Shown here: positions 32,028 through 33,970 of the stretch, piece after piece
How positions within the stretch are numbered: the first letter of the stretch is position 1
Layout of the letters: the number at the start of each line of letters is the position of its first letter
Source of the DNA: Armatimonadota bacterium
GTDB lineage: Bacteria; Armatimonadota; Zipacnadia; Zipacnadales; UBA5352
Direction: 5' to 3'
Length of the DNA: 64,000 bases
Assembly (NCBI GenBank): GCA_034722055.1
Contig: JAYENL010000314.1
Span: 32,001 to 96,000, forward strand
Notes under the pieces: generated by a model
What the model was told of the DNA's origin: nothing
Seen by the model: the letters and a program-made list of their open reading frames with translations, nothing else
Database searches by the model: none
Position numbers and translations under genes: made by a program

Positions 32028-32408
32028 GGCTATGCACTACGTACCTGCTGGACGGCAACGGCGCGGGCGGGCAAGCAAGTCCGCCTCCTCTTGACGCCAT
32101 GCATTACCCACACCCGGCGCGCTCGCGCGAGTCCCTCGGCCGCACTGCGCGGCAAAGCGGTTCGCAATGTCGTTGCTGACGGCGAGCGGCAGACCGCCGG
32201 GATAGAAGCCGCCGCCTGCGCAAGACGGCTGCGCACGCGGCACCCTCGCTACGCTGGGGCGGCCTCTCAGTGCAACAACAGGCCTGAGCCCCGCCTCCGT
32301 CACAGGCCTCGGCCAGGATGTGGCTAATGCAGGGCCGTACGGCTGGGCGACGGTAAAACGACAATAGCCGGGCGGGTGAGATCGCTTGCGATCTCCGGAA
32401 GGGCGCGC

Positions 32409-32567
32409 TCACTGTTCCGTGGGCGGCGACGGCTCCTGCTGGCTATCACCTTCGGCGCCTCCGGCGGCCGGGACCCGCGACGCCCGTCCCTGCGAGAGAT
32501 AGAGGACCAGCAGCAGCATTGCCAGCGCCATGTCGAGGCCGGTTATGTGTGTCAGCAGATGGTGCAT
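32409..32567 (-). CDS. Small single-TM protein (52 aa), probably LexA-controlled
   Basis: AAGGAG SD; MHHLLTHITGLDMALAMLLLVLYLSQGRASRVPAAGGAEGDSQQEPSPPTEQ*; own promoter. Confidence 0.7.
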   Translation of the reverse strand: MHHLLTHITGLDMALAMLLLVLYLSQGRASRVPAAGGAEGDSQQEPSPPTEQ

Positions 32568-32585
32568 TGGTCTCGCTCCTTCCGC

Positions 32586-32650
32586 CGAACATCGGTTCGT
32601 AGTATACGTGGGCCGCCGACGAGAGTCAAGCCCGAGCGAATGTTCGTTCG
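32586..32650 (-). promoter_or_regulatory. sigma70 promoter flanked by two LexA/DinR-type SOS boxes
   Basis: TTGACT(32629-32624)-17-TATACT(32606-32601); CGAAC-ATCG-GTTCG (32586-32599) over the predicted TSS; CGAAT-GTTC-GTTCG (32637-32650) upstream of -35. Confidence 0.7.
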
Positions 32651-32714: not shown

Positions 32715-32767
32715 TTGACGACACTCCTATAATAGTGTAACCTGATGGGCACTCTCATAGGAGTGTC
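32715..32767 (+). promoter_or_regulatory. sat operon promoter with twin palindromic operators
   Basis: TTGACG-17-TAACCT; ACACT-N8-AGTGT (32721-32738) and GCACT-N8-AGTGT (32749-32766); perfect IR GACACTCCTAT/ATAGGAGTGTC. Confidence 0.65.
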
Positions 32768-32815: not shown

Positions 32816-33970
32816 ATGATCGCACCGCACGGTGGAGAGCTCGTCAACAGCGTGCTGGAGGGGGAGGCCCTGGAGGAGGCGCGCGCCAGGGCGGCGGAGT
32901 TGCCGACGCTGGTGGTGCCGGAGGAGGCCATCAGTGATGTCCGCAACCTGGCGCGCGGAGTCTTCAGCCCCCTGCAGGGCTTCGTGACACGGGAGCAGTT
33001 CCTCGGGATCGTCAACGACGAGCGTCTGCCGGACGGCACCATCTTCCCCATCCCCATCTTCCTCACAGTCGATGATCCGGATCAGGTGCAGGGGGGCGGT
33101 GAGGTCGCCCTGGTGAGCGAGGCCGACCCGGACACGCCGGTGGCCCTCATGACGGTGCAGGAGGTCTTCGAGTGGGATAAGTCCGCCGCGGCGGCGGCGG
33201 TGTTCGGGACCGACGACATGGCACACCCCGGCGTGGCGGGCTACCACGCTCGCGGCGACTATATGGTGGGCGGCACGGTGGAGCTGCTGCACAACGGTCG
33301 CGGCCCCTTTGCCGAGGTGAACCTCTTCCCGGCGGAGACCCGGGAGCTGTTCGCCGATCGCCGGTGGCGGACCGTCTGTGCCTTCCAGACCCGGAACGTG
33401 CCGCACGTGGGCCACGAGGAGCTGCAGAAGACCGTGCTGGGGCTGGTTGACGGCCTCATGATCCAGCCGGTCATCGGGAAGAAGAAGACGGGTGACTACC
33501 AGGACGAGGTCATCATCGCGGCCTACCAGGCGCTGATCGCGAGCTACTTCCACCCCGACCACGTGCTGTTGAACATCCTCCCCACCGAGATGCGCTACGC
33601 CGGCCCCAGGGAGGCCATCCTGCACGGGATCATGCGCAAGAACTACGGCTGCACACACATCATCATCGGCCGCGACCACGCCGGCGTGGGGGACTACTAC
33701 GGCGAAGAGGAGGCCATTGAGAAGTTCGAGGCCATGGCCGATGAGCTGGAGATCCAGCCCATCACCATCCGCGGGGACTTCTGGTACTGCCGCACCTGCG
33801 GCAGGGTCGCCTCCAGCCGTACCTGCCCCCATGAGGGCGAGGCGCGCCTGTCGTTCAGCGGGACCGAGATACGGGCGATGATCAGCGAGGGCACACCGCC
33901 GCGGCCGGAGGTCATGCGGGCGGAGGTCTTCGAGGTCATCGAGCAGTTTGACCAGCCGTTCGTGTCGTAG
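32816..33970 (+). CDS. sat: Sulfate adenylyltransferase (ATP sulfurylase)
   Basis: APHGGELVN, FSPLQGF, AFQTRNVPHVGHE, MRYAGPREA, RKNYGCTHIIIGRDHAGVG, C..C...TCPH zinc site, SGTEIR. Confidence 0.95.
   Translation: MIAPHGGELVNSVLEGEALEEARARAAELPTLVVPEEAISDVRNLARGVFSPLQGFVTREQFLGIVNDERLPDGTIFPIPIFLTVDDPDQVQGGGEVALVSEADPDTPVALMTVQEVFEWDKSAAAAAVFGTDDMAHPGVAGYHARGDYMVGGTVELLHNGRGPFAEVNLFPAETRELFADRRWRTVCAFQTRNVPHVGHEELQKTVLGLVDGLMIQPVIGKKKTGDYQDEVIIAAYQALIASYFHPDHVLLNILPTEMRYAGPREAILHGIMRKNYGCTHIIIGRDHAGVGDYYGEEEAIEKFEAMADELEIQPITIRGDFWYCRTCGRVASSRTCPHEGEARLSFSGTEIRAMISEGTPPRPEVMRAEVFEVIEQFDQPFVS

Follow-up and report, generated by a model that had tools for sequence, protein, structure and literature searches.

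Does a minus-strand ORF of 52 codons lying under two LexA-type boxes encode a genuine SOS-induced membrane peptide, and if so, would such a peptide act as a toxin, as an inhibitor of cell division, or in some other way? The question arose from a preliminary description of a 64,000-nucleotide stretch of DNA (hereafter the window) from an Armatimonadota genome of 6.1 Mb and 68% GC that is 93% complete (G000). The class concerned, Ca. Zipacnadia, is a proposed Armatimonadota class from anoxic sediments (PMC10290634). The elements named in that description are in place: the ORF (32567-32409), its AAGGAG Shine-Dalgarno sequence (32581-32576), a near-consensus promoter with the -35 hexamer TTGACT at 32629-32624 and the -10 hexamer TATACT at 32606-32601, a perfect box covering the predicted start site, and a one-mismatch box upstream of -35 (Table 1). 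An additional one-mismatch copy at 32633-32646, which overlaps the upstream box, had been missed.

Table 1. Positions of the peptide gene, its predicted control elements and the surrounding features in the window.
Feature	Position	Strand	Details
Mosaic of dispersed intergenic repeats	32050..32350		Up to 46 overlapping BLAST matches per position in the genome
REP-like palindrome	32375..32401		27 bp; hairpin found at 25 loci in G000, 18 of the 27-mers being exact
ORF for a 52-aa single-helix membrane peptide	32409..32567	-	Homologues in 19 genomes; dN/dS 0.32; AlphaFold2 helix 2-30
Conserved core, codons 1-26	32490..32567	-	[T/N]G-x-D and apolar run to Tyr; the remainder is a variable tail (alignments A3, A8)
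Shine-Dalgarno sequence AAGGAG	32576..32581	-	8 nt 5' of the ATG; purine-rich Shine-Dalgarno sequence also in relatives
Box 1, perfect CGAAC-N4-GTTCG	32586..32599		Over the predicted start site; begins 2 nt after -10
Sigma-70-type promoter TTGACT-17-TATACT	32601..32629	-	10/12 consensus matches
Box 2, one mismatch	32637..32650		7 bp upstream of -35
ATP sulfurylase gene (sat), divergent neighbour	32816..33970	+	First of the sat - APS kinase - phosphodiesterase-family operon

Taken alone, the box is no commoner in the window than chance would predict (five matches at no more than one mismatch, versus 11.8 expected), and the 29 genome-wide sites for GAAC-N4-GTTC show no enrichment relative to other spacer lengths (19-136). 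Two promoter-like sites were observed in 3 kb, where 0.4 would be expected. The composite of promoter plus box occurs once in G000, and none of 28 shuffled-box controls gave a single match. When scored with a matrix built from seven other G000 boxes, the box of the peptide gene ranks only 26th (14.5 bits), and thus its affinity may be moderate.

The preliminary description had asked whether lexA and recA of this genome carry the same box. G000 encodes a full-length LexA (C212:157-777; TIGR00498, 220 bits) as well as RecA (TIGR02012, 515 bits), both above the cut-off. Within 300 bp, 21 of 29 lexA upstream regions have the box at no more than one mismatch, compared with one of 29 in-gene controls, and at no more than two mismatches it is present in 27 of 29, from all seven families of the order, with a consensus that ends in GTTTG; the lexA count drops one row that lacks upstream DNA, and the recA count also drops one. 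For recA the expectation was not borne out, as none of 14 loci has the box within 300 bp. These 14 loci are all from family f1, to which G000 belongs (L002, L038, L157-L170). The recA gene of G000 follows what we take to be a cinA-like gene and a 2'-5' RNA ligase-like gene, and no box at two or fewer mismatches was found ahead of these upstream operon genes.

Perfect copies of CGAAC-N4-GTTCG occupy five sites in G000, three of them intergenic, ahead of the genes for DNA polymerase IV, a Hel308-like helicase and the peptide. One-mismatch boxes precede lexA, uvrA, a DUF6504 gene (with a large, presumably DnaE-like gene after it) and the gene for an MrfA-like helicase, although the majority of the 33 intergenic one-mismatch sites are ahead of unrelated genes. 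Over the whole class, a TTGAC-plus-box pattern matches 54 of 79 genomes; in 70 loci out of the 132 matches listed, the genes that could be recognised from their translations are mainly helicases, DUF6504, dinB, uvrA and radical-SAM genes. The raw box counts and the bare recA loci would fit a palindrome that is bound by some other regulator, or is non-functional, with the peptide gene outside SOS control. This is highly improbable, given the boxes before lexA and repair genes, the full-length LexA of G000, and the demonstration that LexA recognises GAAC-N4-GTTC in Bacillus and Mycobacterium (PMC3323433). The reading of GAAC-N4-GTTC as a LexA-type box in this lineage is supported by the lexA and repair-gene sites, and we infer that CGAAC-N4-GTTCG is the LexA-type operator of the lineage. 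Together, these sites give a first outline of its LexA regulon, in which CGAAC-N4-GTT[C/T]G would stand before lexA, dinB, uvrA, DUF6504 and helicase genes and not before recA.

Several other boxed loci were observed. At L111 (G006:C14 near 16214), a promoter with two LexA-type boxes is followed by about 200 bp with no clear protein gene, and it is possible that an SOS-controlled small RNA is made there. A family of secreted-looking proteins of unknown type follows boxed promoters in G424, G425, G032, G040 and G028 (L211, L212, L221, L225, L244) and is possibly a further member of the regulon. Weaker G000 boxes (C290:3915, C119:4763, C29:36831, C157:17118) precede a large, defence-type ATPase-like gene and DNA methyltransferase genes; the pair behind one of these boxes is presumably SbcCD-like.

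Homologues of the peptide were sought with a DNA query in 61 genomes and with profiles in the order (67 genomes), the class (79) and a sample of the phylum (401). The gene is present in 19 of the 79 class genomes, in one chromosomal copy each, and in 16 of the 18 genomes of family f1. Outside f1 it was found in a single genome per family, in G019 (f3, 114 aa), G036 (f5, 65 aa) and G047 (f6, 91 aa). The two f1 genomes without it are G002 (59% complete) and G011 (91% complete), and in the latter the locus is rearranged and the gene is lost there. Some copies were reached by other routes: that of G008 (24 aa) through synteny and the box, that of G036 through the promoter-plus-box pattern, and that of G006 (35 aa) from a weak match (E 0.26); these three and the G019 copy are included in alignment A6 and so match it by construction. 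No member was detected outside the order among the genomes searched, including the phylum sample of 401. Matches in G028 (E 0.027, no box), in G335 (E 0.007; unboxed and lying opposite a long gene), in G029 and G050 (transmembrane segments of other proteins) and at L209 (a false hit) were rejected as homologues.

A protein database search returned 12 similar short proteins among 1.84 billion representatives, one of which (P0010) was discarded as a repeat artefact, and a further protein search returned 24 matches plus one 114-aa form. The description of the peptide as unannotated is only partly correct, as public gene callers already carry it and its relatives under the label 'hypothetical protein'. 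No informative match was found in Pfam (best E 0.055), NCBIfam or PHROGs, the best PDB sequence match had an E of 0.89, and the best ESM Atlas value of 0.77 is below the useful range. A literature search, with subscription papers outside its coverage, found neither a family or paper that describes the peptide nor a study of LexA in Armatimonadota.

The control region is kept together with the ORF. In all 19 genomes the peptide gene has a sigma-70 promoter and, with it, a CGAAC-N4-GTTCG box, perfect in 16, at one mismatch in two and at two mismatches in one; a DNA query containing the promoter had led to ten of these relatives in the first place, and the box itself to two. Among homologues found by protein alone, which are six genomes and three metagenome contigs, the box is present in nine of nine (G003, G005, G006, G015, G019, G047, L206-L208). 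The promoter has the form TTGAC-17-TAnnnT in 16 of 17 loci; G008 has TTGACA...TATACT with a different spacer, and in G019 the box is relocated into the promoter spacer. Equivalents of the upstream box were found in G004, G005, G010 and G012 (one mismatch) and in G001 and G019 (two mismatches). The suggestion that the ORF and its boxes might be conserved together in relatives was thus borne out, and by these comparisons ORF, promoter and box are co-conserved across the order. The gene is likely to be repressed by LexA and induced by DNA damage. The possibility that the box belongs to the divergent sat operon was rejected, because box and ORF persist where a different gene lies on the divergent side; sat occupies this position in many relatives, though not in every one, and its operon has its own predicted promoter (32715-32743). 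That predicted promoter region (TTGACG-17-TAACCT, 32715-32765, plus strand) holds two CACT-N8-AGTG inverted repeats, and resembling sequence lies upstream in G004, G009, G015 and G003. CACT-N8-AGTG is a candidate operator of a sulfur regulator.

The homologues are 24-114 aa long and share a core of 24-26 residues, M-x(0-12)-[T/N]G-x-D and then an apolar run of 11-14 residues that usually ends in Tyr. G10 is invariant, D12 is present in at least 90% of the rows of alignments A3 and A8, and the tail varies from 0 to about 90 residues. Fourteen aligned copies share a start register, and over their codons 2-25 differences at codon positions 1, 2 and 3 are 0.35, 0.15 and 0.51 and the pooled dN/dS of the core is 0.32; these copies are related and hence non-independent. 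Judged by this substitution pattern, the core is under purifying selection, and the 52-codon ORF is a real gene. A rare ATA at codon 8 (window 32544-32546) is kept in 10 of 12 copies with Ile, across two families; across the genome, ATA accounts for 3.2% of Ile codons, and for 8.3% within codons 2-12.

The tail, in alignment, is not conserved as protein. Its last codons form the -35 and -10 elements of the predicted promoter of the next gene in 12 of 17 loci, and a conserved 'GLD..D' that could have been read as a functional part of the protein was rejected because its letters belong to this downstream promoter. In most f1 members the next gene is one for a lipoprotein-like protein; in G000 it lies apart from the peptide gene. 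The lipoprotein-like protein (74-78 aa; L067:5218-5445 and G000:C211:26943-27170) is itself conserved and family-less, with a Gly/Asp linker and a poly-Pro tail, and its gene is convergent with one for a 645-aa unknown located after rpsI-rplM-truA. It is conceivable that the ORF is a leader or by-product and that the LexA promoter mainly reads through into this proline-rich lipoprotein-like gene, since there is no terminator between the two, the end of the ORF runs into that gene's predicted promoter (TGGACA-17-TAnnAT) in those 12 of 17 loci, and the shared tail residues 'LD...D-stop' are letters of it. However, the core is selected as protein, the boxed ORF occurs without the lipoprotein gene in G000, G006, G019, G036 and G047, and G011 has the lipoprotein gene without ORF or box, which together make this reading very unlikely.

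The conserved part of the peptide looks like a single membrane helix. In 17 copies, the Kyte-Doolittle profile (19-residue window) peaks at 1.5-2.2, and the AlphaFold2 model is one helix over residues 2-30 with a mean pLDDT of 68, confident for 11-30 only. The apolar run is short, at 11-14 residues in most copies, and the alignments place a conserved acidic residue at the edge of the hydrophobic segment. The positive-inside rule relates flanking Lys and Arg residues to membrane topology. No Lys or Arg precedes the helix in any of 20 sequences, while 18 of 20 have one within 10 residues after it, and thus the predicted topology is N-out/C-in. With homologues in relatives that are conserved along with the box, the view of the gene as one for a lineage-specific small membrane protein holds. 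That it is a real LexA-controlled membrane peptide, with all readings of its function taken together, is very probable; in falling order of probability, this is divided among a division brake, an accessory modulator, a depolarising toxin and a leader or by-product.

A toxin was one of the two functions first proposed for the peptide. It would be an SOS-induced, membrane-permeabilising peptide of the TisB/DinQ kind, oligomerising through its intramembrane Asp, that lowers the proton motive force and slows growth or the uptake of toxic compounds; its control would lie with LexA alone or with an unseen antitoxin encoded in trans. Like those type I toxins, the gene has a LexA box and a strong promoter, here with two operators, and encodes a short hydrophobic peptide whose size, single helix and conserved acidic residue at the hydrophobic edge would suit this function; the kept rare ATA at codon 8 might damp translation. 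Both tisB and dinQ are paired with divergent RNA antitoxins, and their primary transcripts are inert until processed at the 5' end (PMC5668327). For the peptide gene, neither of these defining features, an adjacent antisense antitoxin and a long inhibitory leader, was found. Counted from assumed start sites, the predicted leaders of 16 loci are 24-46 nt long and share no sequestering fold, and neither an antisense promoter nor a terminator is conserved in 17 loci. Additionally, the divergent neighbour differs between relatives, none of the 19 short BLAST matches listed pairs with the leader, the gene is single-copy and chromosomal in each genome, the tail is free to vary, and a prophage paralogue (see below) sits inside an operon with no room for a leader of its own. 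The lack of a conserved antisense promoter and of a long leader argues against a TisB/DinQ-type system, and a toxin of this kind is unlikely.

The sequence downstream of the ORF bears on the same point. An antisense RNA had been suggested for 32030-32560, but this region holds dispersed repeats and has no conserved antisense promoter; 32030-32350 was rejected as an antitoxin RNA for its repeats, and an Rfam scan gave nothing near the gathering score at the locus. The perfect hairpin said to follow the stop codon is present (32378-32395). It is, however, a dispersed REP-like palindrome rather than a part of the unit, and was therefore dismissed as the dedicated terminator of a toxin-antitoxin pair. 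It is missing from all 16 relatives examined and may end the peptide transcript in G000 only. On C132 some copies of the palindrome lie in tandem; G000 also has a second and longer family of dispersed repeats.

The second function first proposed was inhibition of division, and the comparison leans, indirectly, towards such an inhibitor over a TisB/DinQ-type toxin. Published SOS division inhibitors are membrane proteins of 29-165 aa with no mutual homology (PMC13689564). SidA of Caulobacter crescentus is a 29-aa, SOS-induced inhibitor in the inner membrane that acts on FtsW (PMC4211646). SidA resembles the peptide in its LexA-type control, minimal size, single membrane helix, lack of an extra domain and narrow lineage range, but it comes from another phylum with another LexA motif, and no Pfam, NCBIfam or PDB link connects the two, SidA having been compared by description. 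YneA, SosA, ChiZ and DivS share with the peptide the GAAC-N4-GTTC operator type and a single transmembrane helix. Unlike them, the peptide has no LysM domain or conserved extracellular part and is not encoded beside lexA, and its predicted topology is opposite to that of YneA. The peptide falls outside the YneA family (PRK14125), with no Pfam or NCBIfam match, and hhalign against YneA-like proteins gave a probability of 0.3, without profile similarity. According to one study, YneA binds TM7 of FtsW, models put SosA, ChiZ and SidA at the same helix with low confidence, and the transmembrane segment of YneA alone does not block division (PMC13396833).

Gene content was compared with this in mind. 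No SulA was found in G000 and no YneA-family match in any f1 genome, and the two LysM proteins of G000 are not small boxed TM-LysM genes; FtsW-family genes are present in 18 of 18 f1 genomes. In G000 the cognate FtsW gene is at C236:16269-17375, and a RodA-like gene is at C242:84773-85882. A YneA-family search of the 79 class genomes matched six. G023, G028, G033 and G426 have TM-LysM genes of 100-110 aa with boxes, whose scores are below the family cut-off, and the peptide is missing from all four; G047 has the peptide together with an unboxed, longer LysM protein. Such an absence of overlap between peptide and YneA-like genes has a probability of 0.32 when kinship is ignored, and neither the peptide nor a boxed YneA-like gene was detected in 56 of the 79 genomes. 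Mutual exclusion of the two is thus only suggestive. The YneA-like genes themselves (L269:122-424, L270:307-615, L271:121-435 and L283, in G028, G033, G023 and G426) are preceded by two or three boxes each, and G033 and G023 also hold an unboxed second copy (L286, L287). In textbook cases the inhibitor gene is divergent from an adjacent lexA, but no small transmembrane gene was seen divergent from lexA in 29 loci. The lexA gene of G000 is divergent from a methyltransferase-like gene, away from the peptide gene, and the boxed YneA-like genes of the order are likewise away from lexA in the three loci seen.

A second copy of the motif was found in G000. A 30-aa ORF (C98:1198-1290, L317) matches alignment A6, of which it is not a part, with an E of 7.6e-4, and was recovered in a local six-frame search with an E of 0.003, where the next match was at 3.4. 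Its sequence contains the ITG-x-D motif and an apolar run of 14 residues, and no LexA box precedes it. From this similarity it is likely to be homologous to the peptide over about 20 residues. The ORF is the second gene of an operon and overlaps the stop of the first; the operon also encodes a transposase, a Gp3-like protein, an exonuclease, DUF5131, a DnaC-like loader and an HTH regulator, and by this content looks like a prophage early region. No match to the paralogue was found in INPHARED phages. The peptide pattern hit five stretches of viral contigs, none of which was confirmed, and eight viral-contig stretches from a degenerate DNA pattern were rejected, as no start-bearing, family-like small ORF was present in the stretch printed. 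Small host-modulating genes such as lambda kil and cIII and Qin DicB are typical of prophage early operons, and their products are mostly soluble or peripheral. The operon position of the paralogue resembles theirs, whereas the main copy of the peptide gene is chromosomal and under LexA, and no PHROG or phage-collection match was obtained.

The peptide might, alternatively, be an SOS-induced accessory subunit that tunes another membrane protein, such as an efflux pump, a transporter, a membrane protease or a phage receptor, as AcrZ, MgtS and lambda cIII do for their partners. A G-x-D...Y surface that stays fixed while the tails vary freely suits a single binding partner, the predicted N-out topology is compatible, and the likely paralogue lies in the kind of operon where host-modulating peptides are common. 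Nevertheless, no candidate partner is co-located or co-conserved, the neighbours differ between families, and f1 would then have no detected SOS division inhibitor; this role is considered rather unlikely.

The favoured explanation, which is tentative and falls somewhat short of an even chance, is that the peptide is a SidA-like SOS brake on cell division, by analogy with that protein. LexA bound over the +1 position and at the second, upstream site would block a strong sigma-70 promoter, and RecA-triggered cleavage of LexA after DNA damage would free it. The short 5' leader (about 24-46 nt) would be translated at once, with no RNA antitoxin. The core of 24-26 residues would insert N-out/C-in with G-x-D at the outer face, and the tail would be dispensable. 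By analogy and from gene-content arguments, the helix might then bind the septal peptidoglycan synthase, a late divisome protein such as FtsW, and delay division until repair. A further-reaching proposal is doubtful: an N-out peptide family, shared with phages, with its whole function within about 20 residues ([T/N]G-x-D and a short helix) and used by a prophage to stall host division, would have been domesticated under LexA in this order and have replaced YneA as the DNA-damage checkpoint. If this were true, the 24-aa form of G008 would be smaller than any divisome inhibitor so far described, with a topology reverse to that of YneA and SosA.

Overall, the peptide appears to found a new family of a known kind, the SOS small membrane proteins, with regulation that is well supported by comparison among genomes. 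As the known SOS division inhibitors share no homology, the checkpoint effector of each lineage must be found anew, and for a deep-branching phylum the peptide is now a concrete candidate. The natural variants narrow the functional core down to about 24 residues, a length that is easy to synthesise and mutagenise. If the peptide targets FtsW with reverse topology, it would offer a new minimal template for the inhibition of SEDS polymerases; if FtsW is not the target, it would still represent a new family of SOS membrane effectors.
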